Below are positions 12,177-56,910 of a stretch of 64,000 nt of DNA, piece by piece. The translations under genes were made by a program, and so were the position numbers. The DNA is from a virus, in the IMG/VR virus record IMGVR_UViG_3300035696_000035, positions 1-64,000 of that record; one strand, written 5' to 3'. The notes beneath the pieces were generated by a model. That model ran no database searches and had not been told where the DNA came from. It saw nothing but the letters and a program-made list of their open reading frames with translations. The stretch's first letter is position 1; each line of letters opens with the position of its first letter.

Positions 12177-12446
12177 ATGAAGAAGACGATCCACAAGTAC
12201 AACGTGACGATGGAAGACACCTTCGAGCTGAAGCTGCCGAGGGGTGCCCAGATCCTCACTGTCCAGGAGCAGTACGGCGAGCCTCAGCTCTGGGCCGTCG
12301 TCGACACCTCGGCTCCCAAGGAACCACGCCGGTTCCGGTTGGTAGGCACCGGCCACCCGATCGACGAGAAGCTCAACCTGTCGTACGTCGGCACCTTCCA
12401 ACTCGACCACGGCGAGTTCATCGGTCACCTGTTCGAGCTGCTGTGA
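12177..12446 (+). CDS. hypothetical protein
   Basis: 89-aa ORF. Confidence 0.4.
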   Translation: MKKTIHKYNVTMEDTFELKLPRGAQILTVQEQYGEPQLWAVVDTSAPKEPRRFRLVGTGHPIDEKLNLSYVGTFQLDHGEFIGHLFELL

Positions 12447-12712
12447 TCGCTCCTGGCACTCTCTGCAGGCTGAAGAACCCGATGGGGTTCAACATCACGT
12501 TCCGGCGTCGGCTAGAGGACCCGCCCCCGGATCCTGCGAAGCCCCCAGTGAATGGAACGTGCCTCATTGACCCGAACCTCTACCTGTTCACAATCGTAGC
12601 GGTGCCCTTTCGCCGTGCAAACGACCACTACGCTTGGGGCATGCTCAACGATGGCCGCTTGGGGTTCATCAACTGCAAGTGGCTGATTGAGGTCCGCGAT
12701 GGTGATGTCTGA
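12443..12712 (+). CDS. family-A-like protein
   Basis: GTGA start; IAPGTLCRLKN..FTIVAV..CKWLIEV. Confidence 0.4.
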   Translation: MIAPGTLCRLKNPMGFNITFRRRLEDPPPDPAKPPVNGTCLIDPNLYLFTIVAVPFRRANDHYAWGMLNDGRLGFINCKWLIEVRDGDV

Positions 12713-12989
12713 GATCCTGCTCGTCCTGGTGCCGGTGTTGCTTGCCATTCTAGCTCTCGCTGGAAGGATAACTCAGGAGGGAGTCAAGCAGAACAATGAG
12801 GACGGTCCCTCCTTTAACGGCACCCAAGCCCGCACCTACCAGTGCCAAGAGATGGTGCCCGACATGGAGCTCGCAGTGACCTACCGTGACGCGCCGTTGA
12901 AGCAGTGCAGCCATGCCATCAAGCTCCACGTCAGGGGTGACTGCATTCCCATGTGTCCCAAGCATGGCACACCGATGAAGCGAGTGTAA
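12699..12989 (+). CDS. small membrane protein with 5-Cys C-terminal domain, immediately upstream of MVP gene
   Basis: MVMSEILLVLVPVLLAILALAG TM helix; CQEMVPD..CSHAIKLHVRGDCIPMCPKHG. Confidence 0.4.
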   Translation: MVMSEILLVLVPVLLAILALAGRITQEGVKQNNEDGPSFNGTQARTYQCQEMVPDMELAVTYRDAPLKQCSHAIKLHVRGDCIPMCPKHGTPMKRV

Positions 12990-13019
12990 CGCTGTCTGTT
13001 AAAGAGATAGGGTGGCACC

Positions 13020-16000
13020 ATGGTCAAGTGCAATATGTGTCGCGGCTCGGGTTGGTACCAAGCCAACGCGAACCAACGCACCAAGTGCCCCTACTGCCAG
13101 GGTCGAGGCAGCATCGACGAGAAGGACCCAGCGCAGCAGCGTAGGGCTCGTGAGCTCGACGACTTCTACACCGGGATGAAGACCTTCGGTGATCCCACCA
13201 CCACGTTTCCTGGCGGGTACAACCCCAGCGAAGTAGAGCGGATCCTGAACGAGAAGGCGATCGAGTCCAAGGCAACGATGCGGAAGCCCGCTCCTTCGCC
13301 CGCGATGCCGATCCCGGGTCCGAGCCCGATCGACGTGGCTCTGTCTGAGGCCCGGCGCCGCAAGCAGGAGCTGTACGGCACTCGCCCAGAACCAACGATT
13401 TCGCCGACGACGCCGGTGGCACCTGAATCTAGTGTAAAGCGTCCGAAAAAAGAAGTAGGGTCTGGTCACACAACGGCGCAAGCCAAAACTCGGAGCAACG
13501 ACAACATGAGCGAAGAAGATATCCGCGGACAGCGTCGAGTGCAGGACATGATCCTGGCTCCCAACGAGTTCGCATACATCAGCGACGAGACCAAGGGCGA
13601 AGTCAACGTCTTCGTCGGTCCCAACAAGCAGAGCCTGGCCGGCACCGACCAGCTCGTCAAGTTCGACCTCAAGTCGAAGCGGTTCCAGTCGGTCACTCGG
13701 GAGCAGGGCATCCAGCTCTTCCAGACCGCACCGGAAGGGTGGTACATCGTCCTGAAGAACCCGGCCGACGGTGACAAGCACCCGACGGGCCAGGGCAAGC
13801 TCAGCACGCCAAACCTCCGGGTCGGCAAGAAGGTCAACATCCCGGGTCCGGCATCGTTCCCGCTGTGGCCTGGCCAGATGGCGAAGGTCGTCCAGGGACA
13901 CTCGCTGAAGTCGAACGAGTACCTGCTCTGCCGGGTCTACGACGAGGAAGCCGCGAAGGCCAACTACGGCAAGGCGGTCGTCAAGACGCAGGGTGAGACC
14001 TCTGCAACGCCTGCTGCCGAGGGCGAGTCCGCCAAGCGGCCGCACCGCAGCGTCGAGGCCTCGGGTCGTGCTTCCAGCGACATCCCGACGGCCAACGACC
14101 TCACGATGGGCAAGCTCTTCGTGGTCCGAGGCACCGAGGTCTCCTTCTACATCCCGCCGACCGGCATCGAGGTCGTCGCCGAGAAGGTGAATGGCGAAGA
14201 GCGCATGGTCCGTGAGGCCTGCTCGCTCGAGCGTCTCGAGTACTGCTTGCTCCTCGACCAGAACGGCAACAAGCGCTACGTCATCGGCCCGGACGTCGTG
14301 TTCCCCCGCCCGACCGAGAAGTTCGTCGAGGCTCCCATCAAGTCGAACCCGGACAAGGTGAAGGCGAAGAAGTTCCGCGCCCAGGAGCTGACCCCGACGA
14401 GCGGCATCCACATCCGTGTCATCGCGGACTACAAGGAGGCCGACGGCACTCAGCGCAAGGCTGGCGATGAGCTCTTCATCACCGGCAACGAGCAGCCGGT
14501 GTACTTCCCCCGCGAGGAGCACGCCATCATCAAGTACGGCGAGCAGGACGTCCACTACGGGATCGCGATCCCGCCTGGCGAGGCTCGTTACATCCTCAAC
14601 CGCCTCACCGGCGAAGCGAGCCTGGTCGTCGGTCCGAAGATCTTCCTCCCGGATCCCCGGACGCAGGTCATCCTCCAGCGCGCCCTTCCCCTCGACCTCT
14701 GCAGCTTGCTCTACCCGGGCAACAACGAGGCTCTCGAGGTCAACGCGGCTCGCCTCGGCGTCGAAGACGTCGACTTCATGGGTGCTGGCGGGGCCAACGC
14801 GGCCTTCCTCAACAGCAACTACGTCCGCAGCGAGACGGAGAACGAGGCCTACGGTGCCGTGGCAGCAGCCGCGACCCCCGATGTCGGCCGCGGTCGCATC
14901 CTGATCAAGGCGGCGAGCAAGGCTCTGCCGGGCGATGCCTTCGACCGCAAGGCGAAGTTCACCGCACCGCGCTCGGTCATCCTCAACACCAAGTACGACG
15001 GCGCCGTCGCCGTGACCCTCTGGACCGGGTTCGCAATGCTCCTCGTTCGCAAGAGCGGCGAGCGCCGGGTCATCCAGGGACCGGGCACCTTCATGCTCGA
15101 GTACGACGAGAGCCCGCAGGTTCTGTCGCTCTCGACGGGCAAGCCCAAGAGCACCGACAACATCCTCCGCACGGTGTACCTGCAGGTCGCCAACAACATG
15201 GTCAGCGACGTCGTCGAGGTCGAGACCAAGGACTTCTGCCGGATCAAGGTGAAGGTGTCGTACCGCGTCAACTTCGAGGGCGACAGCGACTCGTGGTTCA
15301 ACGTCGACAACTACGTCAAGTTCCTCTGCGACGCGATGCGGTCTCGCATCCGGTCCGCAGTGCAGAAGCTCGGTGTCGAGGAGTTCTACTCCAACCACAC
15401 GCCGATCCTGCGTGACATCATCCTGGGTGCCAAGCACAAGGACCAGGAGCGCCTCGGCACCACGTTCGCCGAGAACGGCATGCGGATCTACGACGCCGAG
15501 GTCCTCGGCATCGAGATGACCAACACCGACGTCGAAAAGATGTTGGTCGCTGCACAGCGGTCGGTCATCCAGAACACCCTCGTCCTGGCCGAAGAGCGGC
15601 GCAAGCTGGAGTTCGTCAAGGAGACAGAGGAGCTGAAGCGGCAGACGGAGCTGGCCCGGGCGGAAACGACCCGAGCGACCCTCGAGCTGCAGCAGGTCAA
15701 CGCCAAGCGCAAGCTGGAGCTCGACCTGACCCTGATCGCCAACAACGCCAAGCAGCAGGCCGACCAGCTCGCTGCGGAAGCGGCTGCGGAAGCAGCACGT
15801 GCGGCGAACAACATGGCCCGTGAGCAGGCGGCAGCCGAAGTGGCAGCCCTCGAGCTCCAGACGACCGAGGCCCAGCGCGCCGCAGAGCGAGAGCACCTGG
15901 CGAAGACCCAGGCCATCGAGCTCGAGAAGCTCCGGGCACAGGTCCAGGCCACGGTCGACAAGGCCAAGTCCATCGAACCGCAGTTCGTCGCGGCCCTCCA

Positions 16001-16196
16001 GGCCTTCGGCGACAAGGCACTCGTCGAGAAGCTGTCGGAGGCCATGGCTCCGCTGGCGATCATCGGCGGTGGCAAGAAGGGCGTCGCCGAGATCTTCAAC
16101 GACCTGCTGAAGGGCACCGTCCTAGGCAACACCCTGGGCACCCTCGCGGCAGGCGCCGAGAAGTCGAACGGCGCGGCCAAGACGGCACGAGCCTGA
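13020..16196 (+). CDS. major vault protein (MVP) homolog with N-terminal DnaJ-type CxxCxGxG zinc finger
   Basis: 1058 aa; repeated MVP-repeat pattern (NEFAYISDETKGEVNVFVGP; RYVIGPDVVFP; SLVVGPKIFLP); shoulder region VLSLSTGKPKS..TKDFCRIKVKVSYRVNF..VDNYVKFLCDAMRSRIRSAV aligns by eye to MVP [48 protein letters not shown]; long C-terminal Ala/Glu/Lys/Gln coiled coil = cap-helix; N-terminal CNMCRGSG..CPYCQGRG. Confidence 0.85.
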   Translation: MVKCNMCRGSGWYQANANQRTKCPYCQGRGSIDEKDPAQQRRARELDDFYTGMKTFGDPTTTFPGGYNPSEVERILNEKAIESKATMRKPAPSPAMPIPGPSPIDVALSEARRRKQELYGTRPEPTISPTTPVAPESSVKRPKKEVGSGHTTAQAKTRSNDNMSEEDIRGQRRVQDMILAPNEFAYISDETKGEVNVFVGPNKQSLAGTDQLVKFDLKSKRFQSVTREQGIQLFQTAPEGWYIVLKNPADGDKHPTGQGKLSTPNLRVGKKVNIPGPASFPLWPGQMAKVVQGHSLKSNEYLLCRVYDEEAAKANYGKAVVKTQGETSATPAAEGESAKRPHRSVEASGRASSDIPTANDLTMGKLFVVRGTEVSFYIPPTGIEVVAEKVNGEERMVREACSLERLEYCLLLDQNGNKRYVIGPDVVFPRPTEKFVEAPIKSNPDKVKAKKFRAQELTPTSGIHIRVIADYKEADGTQRKAGDELFITGNEQPVYFPREEHAIIKYGEQDVHYGIAIPPGEARYILNRLTGEASLVVGPKIFLPDPRTQVILQRALPLDLCSLLYPGNNEALEVNAARLGVEDVDFMGAGGANAAFLNSNYVRSETENEAYGAVAAAATPDVGRGRILIKAASKALPGDAFDRKAKFTAPRSVILNTKYDGAVAVTLWTGFAMLLVRKSGERRVIQGPGTFMLEYDESPQVLSLSTGKPKSTDNILRTVYLQVANNMVSDVVEVETKDFCRIKVKVSYRVNFEGDSDSWFNVDNYVKFLCDAMRSRIRSAVQKLGVEEFYSNHTPILRDIILGAKHKDQERLGTTFAENGMRIYDAEVLGIEMTNTDVEKMLVAAQRSVIQNTLVLAEERRKLEFVKETEELKRQTELARAETTRATLELQQVNAKRKLELDLTLIANNAKQQADQLAAEAAAEAARAANNMAREQAAAEVAALELQTTEAQRAAEREHLAKTQAIELEKLRAQVQATVDKAKSIEPQFVAALQAFGDKALVEKLSEAMAPLAIIGGGKKGVAEIFNDLLKGTVLGNTLGTLAAGAEKSNGAAKTARA

Positions 16197-16274
16197 TCAA
16201 CAAGCCGGAAGCCGCTGCCATCCAATCCCGGGTGGCAGCGGCTTTCGCACATCTGAAGAAAGAGAGTCCCACAA

Positions 16275-33199: not shown

Positions 33200-33988
33200 A
33201 TGCCTGGTCCTTTCGCTGCCTTCACCATCACACGCAACGAAGCTCTGTTCTTGCCGCTATGGTGCCAGTACTACTCGACGGTGTTCGGCGAAGAGAATTG
33301 CTACATCATCGACAACGACACCACCGACGGATCAGTGGAGACAGTCAAGCAACGATTCCCGAGCATCAACGTCGAGCAGCAACACCGTGAAGCGGAACAC
33401 GACACCCGGTGGTTGCTTGAGGTGGTCCAGCGGAAGCAACGTCAACTGTTGGCATCACACAAGGTCGTTGTCTTTGCGGAAACTGATGAGTTCCTGTTGG
33501 CAAAGCCAGGAGGCAAGTACAAGGACCTCCATGATGTGTGTGAACAGTTGTTGGTTGATCCTCACCGCAACTGGATCCAAGCTCAAGGTTGGCAGTGCAT
33601 GCAAGCACCTGACGAGCCAGCGATCACTGTGGTGAGGGGCGAGCCGGCGTTGAAGGACCGAGCAACCGTCCAACAGCACGAACAGTACTGCAAGACGCTG
33701 GTCAGCAAGGTCCCGTTGTCATGGGTCGGAGGCTTTCACTGGCGAGACATCGGGAATGGCCGAGGCGACAAGAACCCCAGCTCCATCGACTCTGACTTGG
33801 CATTGTTGCACCTGTGGACGTTGGATGCTGAGGCGTTCATGGAACGTCGTCGTAACAGGATGCAGAAGTGGGGCCAACTCGAGAAGTGGCCCGACATGTG
33901 GACGATGTTCAAGGATCAAGAGAACAGCTGCAGGCTGCATGCATCTATGCCTACTCCCGAGGAGTGGAGAGAGCTGTTGGTCTGGTGA
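33200..33988 (+). CDS. putative glycosyltransferase (GT-A fold; paralog of 35778..36569)
   Basis: Trimmed to MPGPFAAFTITRNE; IDNDTTDGSVE DxD-type motif; shares AFTITRNE/TTDGSVE/DLALLH blocks with 35778..36569. Confidence 0.55.
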   Translation: MPGPFAAFTITRNEALFLPLWCQYYSTVFGEENCYIIDNDTTDGSVETVKQRFPSINVEQQHREAEHDTRWLLEVVQRKQRQLLASHKVVVFAETDEFLLAKPGGKYKDLHDVCEQLLVDPHRNWIQAQGWQCMQAPDEPAITVVRGEPALKDRATVQQHEQYCKTLVSKVPLSWVGGFHWRDIGNGRGDKNPSSIDSDLALLHLWTLDAEAFMERRRNRMQKWGQLEKWPDMWTMFKDQENSCRLHASMPTPEEWRELLVW

Positions 33989-35091
33989 TGCTGCCGTACG
34001 ATTACCTCGTCGTCGGTGCGGGTCTTTTCGGAGCCACCTTTGCTTGGCATGCCGTCCAGCGCGGCAAGCGGGTGCTGGTCATCGACAAGCGAGATCACAT
34101 CGCCGGCAACGTCTACACCAAGCAACAGGAAGGCATCCACGTCCACACCTACGGCCCTCACATCTTCCACACCAGCGACCATGAGGTCTGGGCCTTCGTC
34201 AACAAGTTTGCCAGCTTCCACCGCTACGTCCACCACGTCAAGGCCCGCAACGGTGACCGGGTCTTCTCGTTGCCCATCAACCTGATGACAATGTACCAGT
34301 TGTGGGGCGTCACCAGCCCGAGTGAGGCCGAGGCCAAGCTCGCTGCGGTGCGGGTCCCGTGCGATCGCCCGCAGAACATGGAGGACTGGGCGCTGTCCCA
34401 GGTCGGGCCCGAGCTGTACGAGCTGCTGTTCAAGGGCTACACCACCAAGCAGTGGGGGCACCCGCCCAACGAGCTGCCCGCTTCGATCCTGAAGCGGCTA
34501 CCCATCCGCCTGTCATGGGACGACGACTACTTCACCGACACCTGGCAGGGGATTCCCGCCGGGGGCTACACCCGGATTGTCGAGCAGCTGCTGGAGGGCT
34601 CAGAAGTCCGCCTGCGGGTCGATTACCTGGCCGACAGGCAAGCGCTAGACGCCCTGGCACCGACGGTGGTCTACACCGGTCCCATCGACGCGTACTTCGG
34701 CTACTCACTCGGGCAGCTGGAATACCGGACGATGTCGTTCGACACTCAAGTGCTCGACGTACCCGACTACCAGGGCTGCGCCCAGCTGAACTGGACGGGC
34801 ACGGAAGTGCCGTGGACCCGCACCGTCGAGCACAAGCACTTCGAGATGGTCAACGTGCCCAAGACTGTCGTCACCTGGGAGACGCCCTCAGCTTGGCAAC
34901 CCGGTAGCGAACCCTACTACCCGGTGTGTGATGCCAAGAACAACGCGCTCTACGTTGAGTACAAGCAGATGGCTGACCAGCTCCCAAACGTCAGGTTCGG
35001 CGGGCGCCTCGGCACCTACAAGTACTACGACATGCACCAGGTCATCGCCCAAGCATTGCACATGTGCCGAAAGGAGGGTCTGCTTGCCTGA
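33988..35091 (+). CDS. glf: UDP-galactopyranose mutase
   Basis: Start in TGATG overlap; YDYLVVGAGLFGA FAD motif; near-colinear similarity to bacterial Glf (HIFHT, KQWG, GIPAGGYT, YTGPIDAYF, EHKHF, YYPVNDAKN, GRLGTYKYYDMHQVI). Confidence 0.85.
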   Translation: MLPYDYLVVGAGLFGATFAWHAVQRGKRVLVIDKRDHIAGNVYTKQQEGIHVHTYGPHIFHTSDHEVWAFVNKFASFHRYVHHVKARNGDRVFSLPINLMTMYQLWGVTSPSEAEAKLAAVRVPCDRPQNMEDWALSQVGPELYELLFKGYTTKQWGHPPNELPASILKRLPIRLSWDDDYFTDTWQGIPAGGYTRIVEQLLEGSEVRLRVDYLADRQALDALAPTVVYTGPIDAYFGYSLGQLEYRTMSFDTQVLDVPDYQGCAQLNWTGTEVPWTRTVEHKHFEMVNVPKTVVTWETPSAWQPGSEPYYPVCDAKNNALYVEYKQMADQLPNVRFGGRLGTYKYYDMHQVIAQALHMCRKEGLLA

Positions 35092-39594: not shown

Positions 39595-40031
39595 CCCTTG
39601 GCCGGATGGAGTTGGGCCAGTTCGCGGAGGACATCGACGGCCTGCTGCTCGAACTGGCCGACGATCTGTGCTGCCACGTACGCCTTTCGGTACAGCCACA
39701 GCGCCCTGATCAGCTGGGTCCCGATGACGATCGCGAGAGCGAACCAGCCGCTGGCACCGCAGAGCCAGGCAACCAGCGACAGCACCGACGCGCTGATGAC
39801 GCCGCCCGTTGCAGTGCCCCAGGCGTTGCGTCGCAACAGGTGGGAGTGGTAGACGTCACGGTAGAGTGCCAAGGCCAGGCCGAAGCTCGCCGCTTCCTCC
39901 TCTTTCACCTGGTGCCAGTCGACCTTGCTGGCCTCGTCAGTCATCAGGGTGTCAACGTCAACGTCGACATCCGCAGACTGGATCGTCACTTCACTGCTGT
40001 CCATTGTCTTGCTCCTTGCTGGGCTCGTCAT
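39591..40031 (-). CDS. membrane protein
   Basis: Two predicted TM helices (VISASVLSLVAWLCGASGWFALAIVIG). Confidence 0.4.
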   Translation of the reverse strand: MTSPARSKTMDSSEVTIQSADVDVDVDTLMTDEASKVDWHQVKEEEAASFGLALALYRDVYHSHLLRRNAWGTATGGVISASVLSLVAWLCGASGWFALAIVIGTQLIRALWLYRKAYVAAQIVGQFEQQAVDVLRELAQLHPAKG

Positions 40032-41631
40032 AGACGACCGCGTCGAGTGACAGGAACGTCGTTGCCACGCTGGCGGCGTGCTTGAGGGCTGACCGGGTCA
40101 CCTTGACCGGGTCGATGACTCCAGCCTGGACCAGGTCCTCGTACTCCCCCGTTGCCGCGTTGTACCCGCGGCTGTCGGAGCGCTCACCCCGTTCGAGCTC
40201 AGCAACGACGACGTCAGCGCTGGTGCCTGCGTTCTGGACGATGCGCTGGAGGGGCGACAAGCACGCCTTGAACACAGCCGTCGCTCCATGGACCTCGTCG
40301 GGGTCGACACCCTCGGCCTTGCCGACGGCGCTGCGGACCTTGGTCACTGCGTTGAACAACGCCATGCCACCGCCCGGGACCAGGCCCTCTTCGGTTGCTG
40401 CCTTCGTTGCGTTGAGAGCGTCCTCGATGCGGAACTTCCGCTCCTGCATCTCGATCTCGGTGGCACCACCGACGCGGATCACTGCGACGCCGTTGGCCAG
40501 CTTCGCTGCCCGCATCCGGAGCTTCGTCAGCTCGTCTTGAGCCAGGGTCACGTCAGTGGCCTGGACACGTAGCTGTTCCACGTGCTGGGCGACCTTCTCC
40601 TTGGTTGCGCCCCCAGCGACGATGGTCGTCACCTTGGCGTCCGACGTCAGCTTCCTGACCTGGCCCAGGTGGGTGCCCTGGATGTCCTTCAGGCTTAGTC
40701 CCGTCGCGCTGGAGATGAGCGTGGCCCCTGTCAGCACGCAGATGTCCTGCAGCAGCTCCTGACGGTGCTGGCCGTAGCCCGGTGCCTTGACGGCGACGAC
40801 GGGCAGCTTGCCCTGGGCCCGGTTGATGACGAGGCCCGTCATGGCGTCACCCTCGAAGTCTTCAGCGATGATCAGCAGCGGCCGCCGTGCCTGGGCCACC
40901 TTCTCGAGGGCAGGCACGATGTCAGCGAAGGAGGACAGCTTCTTGTCGGTGACCAGCACCAGAGCTTCCTCGTAGACAGCCCGCATCCGCTCCGGGTCGG
41001 TGATGAAGTACGGGCTGACGTAGCCCCTGTCGATCTGCATGCCCTCGACGACCTCCATCGAGGTCGACATGCCCTTGGCATCTTCGACGGTGATGATCCC
41101 GTCACGTCCCACCCGCTCCATGGCATCGGCGATCAGCTTGCCGATGACAGCATCACCGTTCGCTGAGATGGTGCCGACCTGGGCGACTTCCTCTGAGGTC
41201 TGGACAGCCTTGGCCGATCGCTTGAGCTCCTCGAGGACCAACTCCACAGTGGTGTTGATGCCCCTGCACACTGCCAGCGGGCTCATCCCCGCCTCGACCA
41301 GCTTCATGCCCTCGCGGACCAGCGCCTGGGTCAGGACGCTGGCGGTCGTGGTGCCGTCACCAGCGACGTCGTTGGTCTGGCTGGCTGCCTCACGGACCAG
41401 GTCTGCCCCCATCCTTTCGACTGGATCACGGAGCTTGATCGACTTGGACACCGTCACCCCGTCCTTGGTGACCAAGGGTGCCTGCCCCTGTCGCTGGATC
41501 AGCACCGTCTTGCCCTTCGGGCCGAGGGTGCATCCGATGGCGTCAGAAGCCTTGTCGAGGCCTGACAGGAGCTGCTTGCGAGCTTCGCTGCTGAAGATGA
41601 TCTGTGTCGTGGATTCGCCGGGCATGTTCAT
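39991..41631 (-). CDS. groEL: chaperonin GroEL (Cpn60)
   Basis: 546 aa; TLGPKGKTV, GDGTTTA, VEGMQIDRGY, AVKAPGYG, GGG(MALFNAV) hallmark motifs; full-length colinear with GroEL. Confidence 0.9.
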   Translation of the reverse strand: MNMPGESTTQIIFSSEARKQLLSGLDKASDAIGCTLGPKGKTVLIQRQGQAPLVTKDGVTVSKSIKLRDPVERMGADLVREAASQTNDVAGDGTTTASVLTQALVREGMKLVEAGMSPLAVCRGINTTVELVLEELKRSAKAVQTSEEVAQVGTISANGDAVIGKLIADAMERVGRDGIITVEDAKGMSTSMEVVEGMQIDRGYVSPYFITDPERMRAVYEEALVLVTDKKLSSFADIVPALEKVAQARRPLLIIAEDFEGDAMTGLVINRAQGKLPVVAVKAPGYGQHRQELLQDICVLTGATLISSATGLSLKDIQGTHLGQVRKLTSDAKVTTIVAGGATKEKVAQHVEQLRVQATDVTLAQDELTKLRMRAAKLANGVAVIRVGGATEIEMQERKFRIEDALNATKAATEEGLVPGGGMALFNAVTKVRSAVGKAEGVDPDEVHGATAVFKACLSPLQRIVQNAGTSADVVVAELERGERSDSRGYNAATGEYEDLVQAGVIDPVKVTRSALKHAASVATTFLSLDAVVYDEPSKEQDNGQQ

Positions 41632-42267: not shown

Positions 42268-43806
42268 TCAGCTCCCGGAGTCCTCCTCCCCCTCCTCCGG
42301 ATCTAAAGGGTCGTCGTCTTCGACGTCGTCCTCCTCTCCTAGCGGAAGTCCCATCTCACGTTGGAAGGTGTCGATGGCATCCTTCAGCTGGTCGGGGGTG
42401 ATCTCGCTCTCATCTCCCTGGTCTGCGGGTGGGGAAGCTTCGCCTGGGACCGTGGTATTTACCGCGGCGTTTACCTTTGCGGCCCGACCGATGAGCGACC
42501 ACATCCGGGCCATGCCGTCGTCGTCCTCGTCACGGTACTTGCTGAGGCCCTTCACCCGCTTCGCCAGCTCCTTGACGCTCTCGGCGGCTTCCTCAGGGCT
42601 GAGGTAGGTCCGTCTGACGACGTACTCATGGATGAAGGCGATGGGCCAGTCCTTGACGTAGTCGTAGCCGTCGTTGTACTCGCCCAGTACGTGGCGGACC
42701 ACTTCCTCGTCCAGGGTGTCGACCAGCTCAATCTCATCGATGCGGCCTGGACGTTGCAGGGCATCGTCCAGCTTCCGTCGGTTGTTGACGGTGATGATGA
42801 CCAGCTTCACCTTCTCTTGGAAGTACTCCAACGTCTCCAGCAGCTGTGCCTGGTGGTGGGTGCGATCGAAGTCATCCAAGATGACCGCATCAGGTTGGAA
42901 GATGTTCAGCGCCTCGAACAGGGTGGAGTTGTCGAGCTGGCCGAGGTCAGCGATGCGGATGCGGAACGACCTGAACCCCATCAGCTCGACGATCGTCCGT
43001 GCCATCGTCGACTTGCCGGTGCCGGGTGGCCCGTAGAACATCACGGTGCGGGGCACCCCCGCGGCGATGGGCTTCTTGAGGTACCGAGCGTACTCGGTGG
43101 CCCGCTTGGACTGCTTGCTCTCGAAGGCATCGTCCTGCTCGAAGATGACCCGAGCCTCGTTCTCCTTGAGGATGAGGCGGTTGTTCTTCCGCATCACCAA
43201 GCTCTTGCCCTGGAACTGTTCCCACAGGAGCTGCTTGATGTAGTCCTTGGCCTCCTGCATCCGCTCGGTCTCGACGTAGATGTTGTCGACCGTCTGCAGG
43301 CGTCCGGTGTAGGTCCAGCCGACCTTGAGGCCATTGGGCAGGGTGCAGACCCGGATGAAGGTGTTGTCTTCCGATGTCTTGATCCTCTCGTATGGGAACT
43401 TCTGGAGCACGTGGAGCAGGGTCTGGGTGAAGTCCTGGCTGTAGGGCTCCGTCCATTCGTCTCCGGCGAAGTAGTCCTCGCTGTAGACCTCGACGTCTTC
43501 GATCATGGTCTTGCCCATGGCGAAGGCTGCCTTGCCCGCCGTCCACCATGAGGGCTTGTCCAAGAACGGCGTCGCCGCGTTGAACAGCTCGGTGCCCAGG
43601 GCAAACGCGCGCTTGACCTTGCTGATGCTGAGGAAGCGCCTGATCTCTTCGATCAGGGGCATGTCCTTCACCACCTTCAGCAGGTCCTCGTCGTCGGGAG
43701 CCATCAGCCCGCCCTTCTTTCCCATGTCTTCCTCTTTGTCTTCGGTGACTTCGACGTCAAGAGCATCAATGAACTCGTCTGCTACGTCTTCCCACTTGGT
43801 CGTCAT
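42268..43806 (-). CDS. AAA+ ATPase (paralog of 18622..19902) with acidic C-terminal tail
   Basis: Trimmed to MTTKWEDVADEF (ATGA overlap with 43803..44498); Walker A GPPGTGKST, Walker B VILDDFD, LQRPGRIDEI; tail EEDDVEDDDPLDPEEGEEDSGS. Confidence 0.75.
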   Translation of the reverse strand: MTTKWEDVADEFIDALDVEVTEDKEEDMGKKGGLMAPDDEDLLKVVKDMPLIEEIRRFLSISKVKRAFALGTELFNAATPFLDKPSWWTAGKAAFAMGKTMIEDVEVYSEDYFAGDEWTEPYSQDFTQTLLHVLQKFPYERIKTSEDNTFIRVCTLPNGLKVGWTYTGRLQTVDNIYVETERMQEAKDYIKQLLWEQFQGKSLVMRKNNRLILKENEARVIFEQDDAFESKQSKRATEYARYLKKPIAAGVPRTVMFYGPPGTGKSTMARTIVELMGFRSFRIRIADLGQLDNSTLFEALNIFQPDAVILDDFDRTHHQAQLLETLEYFQEKVKLVIITVNNRRKLDDALQRPGRIDEIELVDTLDEEVVRHVLGEYNDGYDYVKDWPIAFIHEYVVRRTYLSPEEAAESVKELAKRVKGLSKYRDEDDDGMARMWSLIGRAAKVNAAVNTTVPGEASPPADQGDESEITPDQLKDAIDTFQREMGLPLGEEDDVEDDDPLDPEEGEEDSGS

Positions 43807-44498
43807 GCACACAGGTCCTTCGCCAGTTTTCCCTCTTTCTCCAACGTCATGTTCGCATTGAGCTCCCAGTGGAGTGGGATGAGCTTCAACCTCTTGGCGG
43901 CATGGACCAACGTCCGAGCATGGTAGTACAACACTCGGGCTTCTGGCATCACGCCCGGCGGTCGCTTGATCTTGAGGAACCGCTTCTTTGCGTCTTTGAC
44001 GATCCACCACGGACCGGTGTGCTCCTCTCGCTGGTAGCCTTCTTGCAGGTACTGGTCGACAGCAACACGGAGCTCCTCAGGTACCCGCTTCCAGGTGTCC
44101 TCGTTCTTGACGCAGAGGACGATGTAGTTGATGTAGTCCTTCCACGCCTTGATCTGACGTTCCCATTCCCGTTCGGGGTCAGCGTAGAAGCCAACGCATG
44201 ACTCAGTGAAGACCTTGGGCCCACAGACGATGCCGATCTCGATCTCCTCCGGGAAGGGCTGCCCGCCAGCGTCTACGTTGCCAACCTTGGCCGAGTCCTC
44301 GTGCGACTCGTTCTTGAGGTGCAGCACGTGCCTGATGGGTCGACCACAGCAAGCACACTTGCTCTTGCCGTAGTGGAAACCGCAGATGATCCACGAGCCC
44401 GCAGCAATGAGGGGCTTGAAGTTCTTGCCGTAGGCTTTGACGTGCCTATCGTCACTGGCCCGCTCGATGACGTCAGTCTGTTGGGTCTGGTATCGCAC
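43803..44498 (-). CDS. hypothetical Cys-rich protein
   Basis: 231-aa ORF; CGFHYGKSKCACCG cluster. Confidence 0.4.
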   Translation of the reverse strand: MRYQTQQTDVIERASDDRHVKAYGKNFKPLIAAGSWIICGFHYGKSKCACCGRPIRHVLHLKNESHEDSAKVGNVDAGGQPFPEEIEIGIVCGPKVFTESCVGFYADPEREWERQIKAWKDYINYIVLCVKNEDTWKRVPEELRVAVDQYLQEGYQREEHTGPWWIVKDAKKRFLKIKRPPGVMPEARVLYYHARTLVHAAKRLKLIPLHWELNANMTLEKEGKLAKDLCA

Positions 44499-45503: not shown

Positions 45504-46088
45504 TCACCTGTCGTCGTCTTCTTCGTCCTCATCCTCGTCGTCGTCGCTCTCCTCGTACTCATCGTTGGGAGTGAAGACGGGAGCGTCAGCTCCCGGGTGG
45601 AGCTGGATCTCGCACCAGACCAGCTGCCCGTCGGAGATGATGAAGTGAGAGGTCTTGTAGTTGTTGATGTCTTCACCGTCGTCATTGACCTCCCCGTAGG
45701 TGACGCTTCCCTCGGCCTGGCCGCGGAGGAGCGGGACCACCTTGTTGACGAAGATCGGGAAGAAGGTGTTGGCCGCGGTCTCGTCGTAGCCGCTGTCATC
45801 GTCGTGCCAGTCGAGGCAGTTGATCTCCAGGCCGGCCACCGACTTCTTGACAACCTTGGCACCGCACTCTCGACAGAACTTGGCGTTACCGTAGCTGGTG
45901 GTGCCGCAGGCACACTTGACCTTCTCTTTGGTCTGCGAGTTGATCTTGTCCTCCAGCTCACGGAGGAAGCAGTTCTCGGGAAGGTCCCCGTCGTACTTGT
46001 CGAGGAGCTTCTTGGCATCGCGCGGGTCGATGTTGAGGGTTGAACGCTCAGGCCTCAGGAACGTGACGCTGTCGATTCGAGTGCTCAT
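45504..46088 (-). CDS. hypothetical zinc-ribbon protein with poly-acidic tail
   Basis: CACG..x..CRECG ribbon; C-terminal EESDDDEDEDEEDDD. Confidence 0.4.
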   Translation of the reverse strand: MSTRIDSVTFLRPERSTLNIDPRDAKKLLDKYDGDLPENCFLRELEDKINSQTKEKVKCACGTTSYGNAKFCRECGAKVVKKSVAGLEINCLDWHDDDSGYDETAANTFFPIFVNKVVPLLRGQAEGSVTYGEVNDDGEDINNYKTSHFIISDGQLVWCEIQLHPGADAPVFTPNDEYEESDDDEDEDEEDDDR

Positions 46089-46999
46089 ATCGGTGCCTCC
46101 ATCAATCTCTTGCCCAAGTCCTTCAAGAACTCGGGCCCGTACTTCAGGTTGCCTGTTGCCTCGAGGTCTCGCTCGAGGAAGTCAGGCAGGACTTCGTCCT
46201 GGCACCGTGCCGAGGCGATGCCCCAGGCGATCGCGGCGACGCTGTCAGTGTCCCCGCCCCACTCGATGACCTGTCGCATGATGCCCATCAGGGTCGGTTG
46301 GGTCGTCAACAAGGTATGCACCGCCCATGCAGTGTTCATGCCCACATCCCACGGTGAGTGCTTGGCTTTGCCGGTCACCGGGCCCACCCAGGGCTCACGG
46401 AAGCGCTCGAAGGCCGGGAGCTGGTTGGCCAACCACCCGGTCATGCTGGGGAAGTCTCGACGGTCATAGAGGGCAAAGTGTGACATCAGGGCCACAGCCA
46501 CCGAGGCAGTCACGCCCTCGTAGGTCGCATGGGTGGTGCCCGCCTGGCGCATCGCCATCATCTTGACCCACTCCGGGTCGGCGATGGTGCCGAGTGGCAC
46601 GCTCCGCATCGCCGCACCGTTCTTGGTCGAGTCGGGCTTCAGGGTCAGCCGCAGCTCGTCGCCGGACTTGACTGACTCGAGGATCGCCTGGAAGTTGCGG
46701 GAGTATCCATCACGGGGATCACGCTTGAAGGCGTTGAACCAAGCCTCGATGAAGTCCTCGTGCTTAGCGCTCCTACCCTTGGCCAACAGCACTTCGGTCA
46801 ACGCGATCGACATCTGGGTGTCGTCGGTGTACATGCCGGGCCGGAGCTTAGTGTGGGTCGGGTGCTGCAGGTACTGTTCGAATCGGCGAGCCCACTCGTA
46901 GAGGCCTGGGTTCTCTGCTTCCTTGACGTACTCGACGCACGCGGCGTAGGCGTCGCCCTGCGCGATACGGAGCAGCATCAAGTCGTTGCGGTGTCTCAC
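46085..46999 (-). CDS. ADP-ribosylglycohydrolase family protein (DraG/ARH-like)
   Basis: N-terminal GDAYAA, YTDDTQMS, C-terminal GGDTDSVAAIAWGIASA motifs. Confidence 0.7.
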   Translation of the reverse strand: MRHRNDLMLLRIAQGDAYAACVEYVKEAENPGLYEWARRFEQYLQHPTHTKLRPGMYTDDTQMSIALTEVLLAKGRSAKHEDFIEAWFNAFKRDPRDGYSRNFQAILESVKSGDELRLTLKPDSTKNGAAMRSVPLGTIADPEWVKMMAMRQAGTTHATYEGVTASVAVALMSHFALYDRRDFPSMTGWLANQLPAFERFREPWVGPVTGKAKHSPWDVGMNTAWAVHTLLTTQPTLMGIMRQVIEWGGDTDSVAAIAWGIASARCQDEVLPDFLERDLEATGNLKYGPEFLKDLGKRLMEAPI

Positions 47000-52401: not shown

Positions 52402-52622
52402 TGGTCTTCACCGCACCCCGGGCACGTTTCGTGCTTGAGGTCTTCAGCCTTGCATTCCTCGGGAGCGCTCCATTCTTCCTGGACGCCCCACACGTGGACA
52501 TGCCGCCCGTTCTTGTCCCAGATGACGATGAGGGTGCCATCAACGACAGCGTCGACGAGCCCGTAGGATCCCGGGCGGTCCTTGTGAGCGACTAGGTCTG
52601 CCATCCCGAAAGTTTCAGACAT
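52377..52622 (-). CDS. hypothetical protein (family-A-like core, C-terminal Cys cluster)
   Basis: Trimmed to MSETFGMADLVAHK; TLIVIWD..; CPGCGEDQCWCG. Confidence 0.3.
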   Translation of the reverse strand: MSETFGMADLVAHKDRPGSYGLVDAVVDGTLIVIWDKNGRHVHVWGVQEEWSAPEECKAEDLKHETCPGCGEDQCWCGVGR

Positions 52623-53700
52623 ACTTGAATCCGGTGAGCATCCGGCCCGCCGCCTCCAGGTCTTCTTGTGTCTTGACCCCGAAGTACCGCGCGTCTCGTG
52701 GCACTCTGACGAACTGGGTCGGGAACTCCTCAGTGAGCTGCTGCAGCAGCCGCTCATGCTGGATGACAAGGCGGTGACCCACCTGCTTGCGGGCTCGGTG
52801 CCAGCGCCACTCGATGGGTGCCTTCAGCGCTGCGATGTCGATGATCATTGAGTTGGTGTTGTGCCACCGAGCCTGGTCGGCGAAACCTGCGGGCAGCCGC
52901 CAGTCTTCAGCGATCTGGAGCTTGTTGTTGACGTATGCAACGACGCCGCCTTTGTCGCCGCGTTGGCGTTCAATCACCTCGCAAGTGACGGTAGCACCCT
53001 CTCGCTTGTGAAAGCCCAGCAACCCAGGGTGTGGTGAACCCATCACGTTGTCGACGTTGACGATGTAGGCGTACTTCACACCTGGGTTGTCAGCGATGAC
53101 CCCGCTCTCAACCAGCGCCGGGCCCACGTCACCGTGCCCCAGCGGGTACAGGTCGGGTACCCCGTGAGCGATCCACTCCAACCGGTTGTCCGGTGTCAAG
53201 CGGTACCCCTCGAACTGCTCGAAGATGTGGTAGCTCGCCTTGGGCGGTCGCGCCAGCTTCTCTAGGTGGAGAGCGATCGACTTCAGATTGCCGACTGACG
53301 TCATGATCCAGACGGGCATGTTGCCACCCTGCATCACCTTCCACGCCAGCATGCTGGTGTCGACTCCGGGGATCTTGGCGAAGACCTTGGGCATCCCCAT
53401 CCGGGTACCCGCACCACCTGCCAGCAGGACGAAGGCGACCTCGCCCCTGCTGATCATCTCTTCGCCGACCTGTTCGTCAGCAACGGTGATCTCTTCGTAG
53501 TTGTTGAGCTTGTCGTCGTCCGGAAAGTCCGGGTGGTACATCGCCGGATCGGCATCCTGACGAGTCGTCATCTTGACGAGCTCCTCGTCGGTGAGTGCAC
53601 CTGAACGGTGAACCCGAACCTGAAACTCGGGCAGGACCTGGGTCAGCTCTTCACGTAGTGAGCGAACGAATCCGGGTTCAGTCTTCACCAGCCACCTCTT
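52615..53700 (-). CDS. UTP--glucose-1-phosphate uridylyltransferase family (UGPase/UDP-sugar pyrophosphorylase type)
   Basis: LLAGGAGTRMG nucleotide-binding loop, PLGHGDV motif; true start uncertain (Arg/Ser-rich 5' extension of track ORF discarded). Confidence 0.65.
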   Translation of the reverse strand, partial: KRWLVKTEPGFVRSLREELTQVLPEFQVRVHRSGALTDEELVKMTTRQDADPAMYHPDFPDDDKLNNYEEITVADEQVGEEMISRGEVAFVLLAGGAGTRMGMPKVFAKIPGVDTSMLAWKVMQGGNMPVWIMTSVGNLKSIALHLEKLARPPKASYHIFEQFEGYRLTPDNRLEWIAHGVPDLYPLGHGDVGPALVESGVIADNPGVKYAYIVNVDNVMGSPHPGLLGFHKREGATVTCEVIERQRGDKGGVVAYVNNKLQIAEDWRLPAGFADQARWHNTNSMIIDIAALKAPIEWRWHRARKQVGHRLVIQHERLLQQLTEEFPTQFVRVPRDARYFGVKTQEDLEAAGRMLTGFKYV

Positions 53701-54187
53701 GTTCAAACCAACTCTCGTCGACGGGTATGTCAGGGAACGGCCACCAAGCGGGTGCGGCCGCCCTGGGTGCCCACTTGGCGAAACGTGCTTTCTCACCGAT
53801 GTAGTACGCGCGGTACGCCTTGACGGGGTCAGCATCGCGGTACTGCTCGGGCATCGCCTGAGCAAAGGGAGTCAGCCCCAGGTCAGGCAGGTCAGGTTGT
53901 TCGAGCGAGGCGATGATGTGTTCGGTCTTGTGGACCTTGCCGTAACGACGAGTGTACTCGTTGCAGAGCTCACAAGCGTGCCGCAACAACCACTCATAGT
54001 TCGACAACGAGGCACGGACCCACTTGCCACACGGGTGGTTGACGTGAGTGTGTTTGTATCGCGTCGTCCCGGGCGGGAATGCAGTGACCAACAGTTGGGC
54101 ACTCTCCAACAGCATCTTGACCACGTGCTTGTTGCACTGGTCTCGTGCTGCCTTGAGCGGGTCCTGGTCTAGGACGAAGATGTTCAT
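53678..54187 (-). CDS. hypothetical protein
   Basis: 169-aa ORF; MNIFVLDQDPLKAARDQCNKHVVKM N-terminus. Confidence 0.45.
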   Translation of the reverse strand: MNIFVLDQDPLKAARDQCNKHVVKMLLESAQLLVTAFPPGTTRYKHTHVNHPCGKWVRASLSNYEWLLRHACELCNEYTRRYGKVHKTEHIIASLEQPDLPDLGLTPFAQAMPEQYRDADPVKAYRAYYIGEKARFAKWAPRAAAPAWWPFPDIPVDESWFEQEVAGED

Positions 54188-55346: not shown

Positions 55347-55669
55347 CGGTCATACACCCTGAGGTCATGGAACCTCGTATCGAGTAGGTTGTACATCGTC
55401 TGCTTTGCAGTCAGGACGTTGCCGCGGTAGCGTCTAACGATGCCGGGCCACCGCTTCTGCACGAACCGAGTGACGATGGCCCTGTCCCTGGGAGACACTC
55501 GGCCTCCCAAGTCCTCGAACCACTCCTCGGCGAGCTTTCTGCCCGCCTCATCACCGGGCTGCTCATGGCCCTGCAGGCTGGTTCCCTTCAACAGCTTCAT
55601 CATGTGAGGGTCGACACGTAGCTCTGCCAGGGTCTCCTGGATGAATTGGCGGAGGACGTCTTCGTTCAT
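55343..55669 (-). CDS. hypothetical protein
   Basis: 108-aa ORF directly downstream of endolysin. Confidence 0.4.
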   Translation of the reverse strand: MNEDVLRQFIQETLAELRVDPHMMKLLKGTSLQGHEQPGDEAGRKLAEEWFEDLGGRVSPRDRAIVTRFVQKRWPGIVRRYRGNVLTAKQTMYNLLDTRFHDLRVYDR

Positions 55670-56910
55670 GACCTGGGCTTCAACAGGAACTTGACCAGCG
55701 CGACAATGGCGTTGATGATAGACTGCAGGGCACTGCCCCCAGCCGGCGCGGGTACAGGAGAGGGCGGCGTGGGGGCCGGAACAGGCGGCACCGGAGCGGG
55801 GGGCGGGTTGACGGGAGGCGGCTGGTCCAACGCCAGGACTGGGATGCCCAGCTTGTTGGGGTCAAGCCACTCGATCAGGGGACGGCCCAGGCTCGATAGC
55901 ACCGGACCGGTGCCCTGGGTGATCGCGTTGTTGGCGCGGCCACCGCCGCCGTGGTCAGCGTTCCCAGACGCGTCAACGGGACCCAGCAACCACTCAACGT
56001 GGTCGTCGTTGGTGCCCGGAGTGTTGTAGTGCATCAGCGCGCCGACAGGCGGGTTCTGGCCCTTGACGTACTTGGTCAGGGCACCGGTGTTGATGCCGAT
56101 CTGGCGGACCCAGGCGATGGCCATGCCCGACACGTAGGGCTTGTTGAGGAGCGGGTCACGGACTCCAGCAGCCGCCATGATGCCAAGAGCTGACGTGGCA
56201 CAGTTGGTTGAGATGGTCACGACTGACTCTGGGTTGTCGACCCCGCGGCCGACCAGGTTACCCAGGTCGGTGCGACGGTTGGTGAGGCTGCAACCCACGT
56301 AGGACTTGACAAGCCTGACGATCCTGTCAGCGGGCTTCTCACCCGGAACCAGCGGCTGCTGAGCAACGGGCACGTTGGAAGCCTCGGGAGCCGGGTGCAC
56401 CACGGGAGGAGGAACGGGGACCGGAGCTGGCGCGGGTGGGGGTGCTACGGGCTGCGTTGAACCCGCTGGCGTCAGGAACAACGCTCGTTCGGCCTGGCGT
56501 CGCTTGAGCAGGCCCTCATCGACCGTCAGCACGCCGTTGATCGTTGTCTTGTCCCACAGCAGCAACGCGTCAGCCGCGCCCTGGATGTCTCCGGTGTTGA
56601 GCTTGGTCCGGCACGACGACTGTTCCAGCGCGCCGCCCCCACAGTTGAACGTGAATGACACCAGAGCGTCAAACATGTTCTGCGTCATCGAGTGGGTGAT
56701 GTACTCGTTGACGGCGTTCTCAGCAGTACCGACATCGCCCGCTAGCAGGGCCAGGGCCTGTGCATGAGTGATGCCGTTGGGGAACGACTCGCCAGGTCTG
56801 ACCACGTGTCCGATGCCGATCGTGGGGATGCCTGCAACGTCCTTGTAAACGTGATCGACTTCACCTTCCCACGAGGCGATGAAGTTCAGGCCGTTCTGAG
56901 ACGTCTTCAT
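55666..56910 (-). CDS. endolysin: GH24 lysozyme domain plus Pro-rich linkers and a C-terminal Cys-containing domain
   Basis: N-terminal GLNFIASWEGEV..GIPTIGIGH (T4/lambda-type lysozyme); PPPAPAPVPVPPP linker; C-terminal domain with conserved Cys/His; second Pro-rich tail. Confidence 0.75.
   Translation of the reverse strand: MKTSQNGLNFIASWEGEVDHVYKDVAGIPTIGIGHVVRPGESFPNGITHAQALALLAGDVGTAENAVNEYITHSMTQNMFDALVSFTFNCGGGALEQSSCRTKLNTGDIQGAADALLLWDKTTINGVLTVDEGLLKRRQAERALFLTPAGSTQPVAPPPAPAPVPVPPPVVHPAPEASNVPVAQQPLVPGEKPADRIVRLVKSYVGCSLTNRRTDLGNLVGRGVDNPESVVTISTNCATSALGIMAAAGVRDPLLNKPYVSGMAIAWVRQIGINTGALTKYVKGQNPPVGALMHYNTPGTNDDHVEWLLGPVDASGNADHGGGGRANNAITQGTGPVLSSLGRPLIEWLDPNKLGIPVLALDQPPPVNPPPAPVPPVPAPTPPSPVPAPAGGSALQSIINAIVALVKFLLKPRS

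Follow-up and report, generated by a model that had tools for sequence, protein, structure and literature searches.

The 64,000-nucleotide (nt) stretch of viral DNA analysed here (the window; positions 1 to 64,000 of IMG/VR record IMGVR_UViG_3300035696_000035) encodes a major vault protein (MVP) homolog, extended at its N-terminus by a DnaJ-type CxxCxGxG finger, a helical segment and a linker. The longest open reading frame (ORF) over the region initially flagged for this feature (13020-13520) runs from 13020 to 16196 on the plus strand, and its product begins with MVKCNMCRGSGWYQANANQRTKCPYCQGRGS. The stop codon of the upstream gene lies at 12989, leaving 30 nt before ATG 13020. The following elements, all on the plus strand, were delineated at the locus, with lengths in amino acids (aa), predicted helices from an AlphaFold2 (AF2) model and its local confidence given as pLDDT (predicted local distance difference test):

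13004..13015 (+), purine/G-rich Shine-Dalgarno (SD)-like sequence gagatagggtgg, 4 nt before ATG 13020
13020..16196 (+), full ORF comprising zinc finger, helical segment, linker and MVP homolog (long isoform), 1058 aa
13029..13109 (+), two CxxCxGxG motifs forming one putative DnaJ-type zinc centre, aa 4-11 (nt 13029-13052) and aa 23-30 (nt 13086-13109)
13128..13373 (+), segment specific to the clade, for which AF2 predicts three helices (aa 37-51, 69-86 and 103-118), block pLDDT 55-73
13374..13505 (+), disordered linker rich in Pro/Ser/Thr and Lys/Arg, aa 119-162, pLDDT ~30, net charge +3, isoelectric point (pI) 9.8
13433..13461 (+), promoter-like box TGTAAA-N17-TAGGGT, inside the ORF, 73 nt before ATG 13506
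13466..13478 (+), conserved leader block TCACACAACGGCG, near-identical in seven clade members, with the letters common to all seven, TCACACAACGG, at 13466-13476
13492..13495 (+), SD-like GGAG, 10 nt before the internal ATG
13506..16196 (+), predicted short isoform, a plain MVP of 896 aa starting MSEEDIRGQRRVQDMILAPNEF
15192..15521 (+), MVP shoulder domain, aa 725-834, PF11978, pLDDT 85-91
15525..15965 (+), cap-helix-like long helix, aa 836-982, a single helix in the AF2 model, aligned by Foldseek to MVP structures

The ORF is a major vault protein homolog. Its product is 100% identical to JGI protein P0001 from a 72-kb metagenome contig, for which the source's name is 'major vault protein'. 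Pfam assigned the MVP_shoulder family (PF11978) with an E-value of 6.7e-29 (100.7 bits, cut-off 25) and Vault_3 (PF17795) with an E-value of 7.8e-10 (39.2 bits, over the cut-off of 28.8); the Vault repeat family (PF01505) scored 25.2 bits, slightly under its cut-off of 27. Foldseek matched the AF2 model to the human, rabbit and rat MVP structures over ~920-1000 columns with E-values of 1e-28 to 1e-24 (1.4e-28 for 9MXV and 2.8e-24 for 4V60) and to the crystal structures of MVP R1-R7 with an E-value of 8e-10. The template modelling (TM)-scores to solved MVP are low because the domain arrangement in the model is loose. Mean pLDDT of the full-length model is 60.8, and the shoulder and cap helix reach 80-91.

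The two CxxCxGxG motifs at the very N-terminus are not a chance feature, since the pattern C..C.G.G has only three matches in the six-frame translation of the whole window and two of them are this pair. The extension alone matched DnaJ_CXXCXGXG (PF00684) with an E-value of 2.8e-4 and 21.5 bits (18.3 bits for the full protein; the cut-off of 32.7 is not reached) and Anti-TRAP (PF15777) with an E-value of 3.6e-4 and 20.9 bits (the cut-off of 32 is not reached). Searched against PDB sequences, a profile of the finger clade defined below aligned with the Cys-rich domain of E. coli DnaJ (1EXK) at repeats 2-3 with an E-value of 2.9e-4, and with the Anti-TRAP structures 3LCZ and 2BX9 at 0.14-0.45. 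In a separate AF2 model of aa 1-95 the finger has a pLDDT of 80-83 and a hairpin at residues 12-22. The top Foldseek match of this model is again 1EXK (probability 0.96, root-mean-square deviation 2.7 Å over 38 columns, 42% identity, E-value only 0.17), followed by Anti-TRAP, DNAJA2/A3, BSD2 and the UvrA fingers. An hmmsearch of 1.84 billion representative sequences with a finger-plus-helix profile gave matches confined to the finger part, in generic multi-CxxCxGxG proteins; scanning ten of them yielded eight candidate finger proteins, all of which match PF00684, seven above the gathering score.

By relatedness, the finger is thus best described as a single putative zinc centre of the DnaJ type. 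A full DnaJ Cys-rich domain is excluded by its two repeats, where the full domain has four (two zinc centres), by the absence of any J-domain or DnaJ_C match of the window ORF in Pfam, and by scores that stay below the Pfam cut-offs. The first-pass annotation had placed a DnaJ-type CxxCxGxG pair ahead of MVP and held that eukaryotic MVP has no such domain. The motif positions, the Pfam matches and the alignment of the clade profile with DnaJ repeats 2-3 bear out the former, and the latter also holds, no such domain being present in the eukaryotic MVP structures or in the other homologs examined outside the clade.

The segment that follows the finger contains a conserved motif, FYG...GY...RIL..K. 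The hmmsearch of 1.84 billion representatives found no convincing homolog of this segment outside the clade and matched no other MVP; the library is clustered at 50% and the clade's representative in it is probably an extension-less MVP, so other finger-MVP fusions could be hidden. Residues 119-172 are predicted by AF2 to be disordered (pLDDT ~30). The linker, whose 3' two-thirds overlap the buried MVP leader described below, differs in length by up to ~45 aa among clade members and always in frame. The whole extension has a pI of 9.5 and a net charge of +8, and the MVP body is near-neutral. The earlier description of a basic disordered linker between finger and MVP is therefore correct as to charge; as to disorder it applies only to aa 119-172 and fails for the three predicted helices upstream.

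We surveyed the 120 best homologs of the window protein. About 110 of them are 850-910 aa long and start with M..(E/D)..R..RR..DMILAPNEY, exactly at the position of the internal Met163 (ATG 13506) of the window protein. The extension is annotated only in P0001-P0004, P0006 and P0007. P0005 is called from the internal ATG (890 aa), yet L001 9521-12673 holds a continuous finger ORF of 1050 aa; and the start in L028 is a GTG five codons upstream of the called one (P0003 is called five codons 3' of its GTG start, which removes the first Cys). Database lengths therefore understate the frequency of the finger. The finger clade comprises seven members, namely the window, L001 (on the same contig as L010), L022, L024, L026, L027 and L028, with extensions of 120-162 aa. 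All four Cys are present in every member and G11, G28 and G30 are invariant; the first repeat in L027 reads CxxCxxxG. Retention of the finger by homologs is accordingly a matter of clade: it is kept in 7/7 members and absent from ~110 of the 120 best homologs.

Searches beyond this set added little. A viral scan with the N-terminus of P0004 returned no further clade members, and the only hit of a degenerate DNA pattern encoding CRGSGWYQ was L041, on the same contig as L010. A single-protein metagenome scan found only L032 (Ga0326728_10367133, 1255 bp), which is 100% identical over residues 1-95 (285 nt). L032 comes from another metagenome record, so at least two assemblies of the same phage (or of the same sample) exist. 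No stand-alone finger gene was found in any forward frame within 2 kb upstream of MVP in extension-less relatives.

One reading of the survey is that the finger is untranslated, the true start being ATG 13506 and the upstream frame a product of chance or a relic. The equivalent Met does serve as the start in ~110/120 homologs, the gene caller did pick the internal ATG for P0005, and GC-rich genomes such as this one do yield long spurious ORFs. A case in point is the 965-aa ORF at 12999-15896 on the minus strand, which spans the MVP gene in antisense; it is the usual shadow ORF of a gene rich in GC at third codon positions (GC3), not a gene. The evolution of the extension makes this reading exceedingly improbable. 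Between clade members (Nei-Gojobori), the ratio of non-synonymous to synonymous change (dN/dS) is 0.08-0.35 in the finger, 0.27-0.57 over aa 36-90 and ~0.8-0.9, near-neutral, in the linker, while synonymous differences approach saturation (proportion of synonymous differences, pS, ~0.65) throughout the extension outside the ~75 nt that precede ATG 13506 (the pre-Met block). The invariance of the four Cys and three Gly points the same way, as does a GC3 of 0.77-0.87 over 13020-13335, which is typical of coding sequence and resembles that of ordinary genes of the genome. A G-rich SD-like stretch lies 4-9 nt ahead of the finger start in all seven members; the start codon is ATG in six and GTG in L028, and in L022 it overlaps the upstream stop as ATGA. 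The extension contains no in-frame stop in any of the seven independent assemblies, against 2-10 in each other frame, and shuffling leaves such a frame open with a probability of 0.001-0.014 per sequence. The 19 distinct gap blocks in the alignment of the extensions reach ~45 aa and are all in frame.

These evolutionary patterns show that the finger module is translated and fused to MVP, because selection preserves both the finger protein sequence and the open frame across a fast-evolving, indel-rich linker. A ribosome starting at 13020 must enter MVP. The starts of homologs thus speak on both sides: most lie downstream of the finger, and P0005 is called at the internal ATG, and within the clade purifying selection, a conserved SD-like start and 7/7 in-frame extensions argue for translation from upstream. 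The MVP body (13506-16196) has a GC3 of 0.89, at the top of the range for the genome, and within the clade it has diverged less than the extension at synonymous sites (pS ~0.43 vs ~0.65). Strong codon selection on a body that is highly expressed could account for both features, as could separate histories of the two parts.

The pre-Met block departs from the rest of the extension. Its pS is 0.29, with a dN/dS of ~0.9 over aa 145-162. Among the seven members, identity at third codon positions is 0.67-0.69 in the block, about equal to that at positions 1+2 (0.70-0.77), and only 0.25-0.47 in the rest of the extension. GC3 is 0.40-0.47 in the block vs 0.77-0.87 upstream and ~0.9 after ATG 13506, so that it rises at this codon from 0.40-0.63 to ~0.9. 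Low GC3 together with conserved third positions means that non-preferred, A-ending codons are conserved. Within the block, the promoter-like box (TGTAAA-N17-TAnnnT; TA(G/C)nnT in the clade) sits at -73 or -70 in all seven members, and the pattern has a single match in the window, with 0.04 expected. The SD-like element is CGGAG in five members and AAGAG in two. The internal Met is invariant in the clade and aligned with the annotated start of the ~110 plain homologs; the nucleotides conserved from 13506 in all seven members are ATGAGCGAA.

Counterparts of these elements occur in non-coding DNA of relatives that have no extension. The leader block is homologous to non-coding TCACATCACGG 5' of the MVP start in L003, where the upstream non-coding DNA reads aaaagaaTAGAATctggTCACATCACGG and the TAG of the -10 element is an in-frame stop. 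L030 has TTGTAG-N17-TACAAT and acggagaaaatcaatATG upstream of its MVP start, the latter an example of the likeness between the SD-like GGAG stretch and the leaders of such relatives. Overall, 6/15 extension-less relatives carry a TGTA[AG]-N17/18-TAnnnT box no more than 130 nt upstream of the MVP start, the background frequency being 0.01-0.04 per 130 nt. Searched as possible repeated phage promoter motifs, TCACACAACGGCG and the TGTAAA-N17-TAnnnT box each occur once only in the window and are therefore specific to the MVP gene rather than part of a general late promoter. The comparison with relatives shows that the last ~75 nt of the extension are a former non-coding MVP leader, whose -35/-10-like box, leader block, SD-like GGAG and ATG stay conserved at the nucleotide level. 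This ancestral leader is now read through in a frame in which its TAA and TAG do not fall.

Two other candidate features of this region were rejected or discounted. Programmed frameshifting at the A-run AAAAAAG (13444-13450, in the box spacer) has the wrong register for a shift from the 0 frame to -1, and the run is shared only by L028, not being conserved in 5/7 members. The contrast between extension and body in codon adaptation index and GC3, taken as a sign of lower expression of the extension, proved mostly due to the low-GC3 pre-Met block; the remainder is ordinary, and we use it only weakly.

The retained leader suggests that the gene probably makes two nested products, one long and one short. 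The long, finger-bearing form would be read from the upstream operon transcript as a minor form, and the plain 896-aa MVP, started at ATG 13506 from internal signals, would probably be the major species. The fusion described in the first-pass annotation is borne out, and a two-isoform gene is more likely than a simple obligate fusion because the ORF still contains the ancestral promoter-like box, SD-like sequence and ATG, which that annotation had missed. In the obligate case, a single 1058-aa product would be made, Met163 would be merely a conserved residue, and the pre-Met block would be kept for its peptide (for instance a docking or cleavage motif) or as an mRNA element unrelated to initiation. 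The continuity of the ORF in all seven members fits such a gene, and engineered vaults tolerate fusions on the N-termini of all 78 MVP subunits (PMC7916137). We nevertheless consider it rather unlikely: synonymous sites in the block are conserved as much as non-synonymous ones, with non-preferred codons and a GC3 of 0.40; the block is homologous to non-coding leaders in extension-less relatives; and the Met is invariant and lies exactly at the ancestral start.

Several observations weigh against the explanation proposed here, and some of them favour the obligate fusion directly. In a sigma-70 and terminator consensus scan covering 12400-16400, no promoter was predicted at 13433, where TGTAAA agrees with TTGACA at only 3/6 positions, and no terminator was predicted from the finger to ATG 13506. 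Translated, the conserved block yields a recognisable and conserved peptide, VK.P..EV.S.HTTA.AT, so a role at the protein level is possible. The box pattern was partly designed from relatives that were later counted, and only 6/15 of the extension-less relatives are positive. GGAG at 10 nt from the ATG is at the long end of the usual spacing, with AGAG in 2/7 members, and SD use is weak overall in this phage, an estimate that is noisy because it comes from crude longest-ORF gene starts. The AF2 model is only moderate, given its mean pLDDT of 60.8 and values of 65-83 for the finger. The internal promoter, SD-like sequence and start are putative elements predicted from conservation.

What the finger might do on a vault can be approached through known vaults and fingers. 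The functions suggested in the first-pass annotation, a tether of the shell to nucleic acid or a client protein, or nucleation of assembly, are speculative, and the present results do not discriminate among them. DnaJ-type fingers elsewhere are chiefly protein-binding or assembly modules, as in DnaJ itself. A further example is PSA2, a plant DnaJ-like zinc-finger protein reportedly implicated in photosystem I assembly (PMC7662858, PMC4806229). A protein client or a role in assembly is therefore slightly favoured over nucleic-acid binding. In eukaryotic vaults the MVP N-termini are located at the waist, inside the cavity; MVP fused at the N-terminus can assemble, and particles gain regularity and stability from a 12-aa tag containing four Cys (PMC7916137). 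Were the phage protein to build a vault-like shell, its fingers would be held on flexible basic tethers of ~130 aa at the inner face of the waist, where a subset of subunits could staple neighbouring or opposing ones, nucleate assembly, or hold protein or nucleic-acid cargo.

The combination of a fused finger module, nested isoforms and placement in the lumen is the best overall explanation that we can offer, and we give it an even chance. Its parts differ in strength. By analogy with eukaryotic vaults, a position of the fingers at the inner waist of the putative shell is possible, though on the doubtful side. The fullest version, a shell of two nested isoforms in which a minority finger subunit nucleates or clamps at the waist or holds lumen cargo, would make this the first case in nature of an MVP that comes with its own lumen adaptor; it is distinctly unlikely.

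A different role, itself compatible with the fusion, would be that of a cleavable or targeting pro-region, the linker being cut after assembly as in phage scaffolds or pro-peptides, or that of a nucleic-acid tether to phage or host DNA or RNA. The disordered linker, rich in Pro, Ser, Thr, Lys and Arg, and the +8 charge of the extension would suit either function. Zinc-finger DNA-binding proteins, among them Q-like antiterminators and UvrA fingers, are also weakly matched by the finger in PHROG and Foldseek searches. With E-values exceeding 0.01, those matches extend over no more than the generic zinc knuckle, neither a protease site nor a nucleic-acid-binding fold was identified, and DnaJ-type fingers are best known for binding or assembling proteins; we regard such a pro-region or tether as improbable.

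Comparison with solved and described systems places the gene more precisely. With eukaryotic MVP (rat/human; PDB 4V60, 9BW5) the phage protein has in common the shoulder domain, the vault repeats, the long cap helix and a full-length Foldseek match; it differs in an identity of only ~17%, in being encoded by a huge phage, and in the 162-aa finger-helix-linker module, which is found in no solved MVP. Phage MVP homologs were described once, as plain proteins of ~810 aa with no assigned function in gut phages (bioRxiv 10.1101/2023.11.10.566534), and bacterial homologs have also been described (10.1101/872010). These proteins belong to the same family and are plain, at ~810-820 aa, and the text read of these two reports mentions no zinc finger or N-terminal fusion; the finger clade, by comparison, has only seven known members. 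Finger-MVP is thus a new domain architecture in a known family, the phage/bacterial MVP homologs, and is restricted to a rare clade.

The finger itself has in common with the DnaJ Cys-rich domain (PF00684; 1EXK) and its single-centre relatives (Anti-TRAP PF15777, BSD2, PSA2) the CxxCxGxG motif and a predicted hairpin between motifs, with the best matches at DnaJ repeats 2-3. It differs from the DnaJ domain in having two repeats instead of four, in lacking a J domain, in scoring below the Pfam gathering thresholds and in being fused to a cage protein. In engineered CP-MVP vaults a Cys-rich element likewise stands at the MVP N-terminus, at the inner waist (PMC7916137). That tag is artificial, 12 aa long and thought to act through disulfides, whereas the phage element is a natural, putative zinc knuckle on a tether of ~130 aa, possibly present on some subunits only.

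Nested in-frame genes with an internal start are familiar in phages, for example T7 gene 4A/4B and phiX174 A/A*. The MVP gene resembles them in having an upstream start and an internal ATG with its own SD-like sequence, and in products that are predicted to have the same C-terminus. It differs in that the internal signals are a retained ancestral promoter-like box and leader, and in that the products are predicted from sequence. If the prediction holds, the gene would be an example of a fusion that swallowed a promoter, leader and start codon while keeping them working, which bears on the annotation of start sites; gene callers do disagree here, taking the internal ATG for P0005 and the upstream start for P0001-P0004.

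The function of vaults has been a puzzle for decades, and a natural N-terminal module on MVP provides a concrete handle, as the finger and tether could be used as bait for partners. If the lumen adaptor is true, the finger could reveal the contents of prokaryotic and viral vaults. The architecture also parallels what vault engineers devised on their own, Cys-rich tags and cargo fusions placed at the N-terminus. Should the extension be an ordinary clade-specific addition with no special role, the finding reduces to a modest note on domain architecture.

The window is a region of a huge (jumbo-class) phage genome. IMG/VR viral contigs that carry relatives of the MVP gene measure 140-436 kb; further relatives lie on the 'uncultured phage' records LR756500-3 (462-735 kb), and fragments of Gp23-like capsid protein are present at related loci. 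Besides MVP, the window codes for a GroEL-like chaperonin, a phage lysozyme, AAA ATPases, sugar-nucleotide enzymes and numerous small ORFs; Rfam and tRNA scans of the window gave no matches. Other annotated genes are:

16275-18197 (+), SPFH/Band_7 (flotillin-like) protein, 640 aa, with an N-terminal hydrophobic helix; Pfam E-value 1.2e-28; PHROG 200 'lipoprotein'
18622-19902 (+), AAA ATPase
33868-35091 (+), UDP-galactopyranose mutase
39991-41631 (-), GroEL-like chaperonin (Cpn60_TCP1), E-value 1.2e-70
42268-44010 (-), AAA ATPase
46085-46999 (-), ADP-ribosylglycohydrolase, E-value 4.8e-33
52615-53865 (-), UTP-glucose-1-phosphate uridylyltransferase-like protein
55666-56910 (-), 414-aa protein with an N-terminal phage lysozyme domain

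The SPFH/Band_7 gene adjoins MVP directly on its 3' side. The same order, MVP followed by Band_7, is found in L024, and a Peptidase_M24 gene occupies this place in L027. MVP and Band_7 thus form an adjacent pair of cage- or dome-forming, SPFH-related proteins in one phage. The presence in one genome of a chaperonin and of a DnaJ-type finger on MVP may be a coincidence. Eukaryotic vaults contain the poly(ADP-ribose) polymerase PARP4, which may lend interest to an ADP-ribose-removing enzyme encoded 30 kb from the phage MVP. The sugar-nucleotide, lysozyme and AAA ATPase genes are typical accessory content of huge phages.

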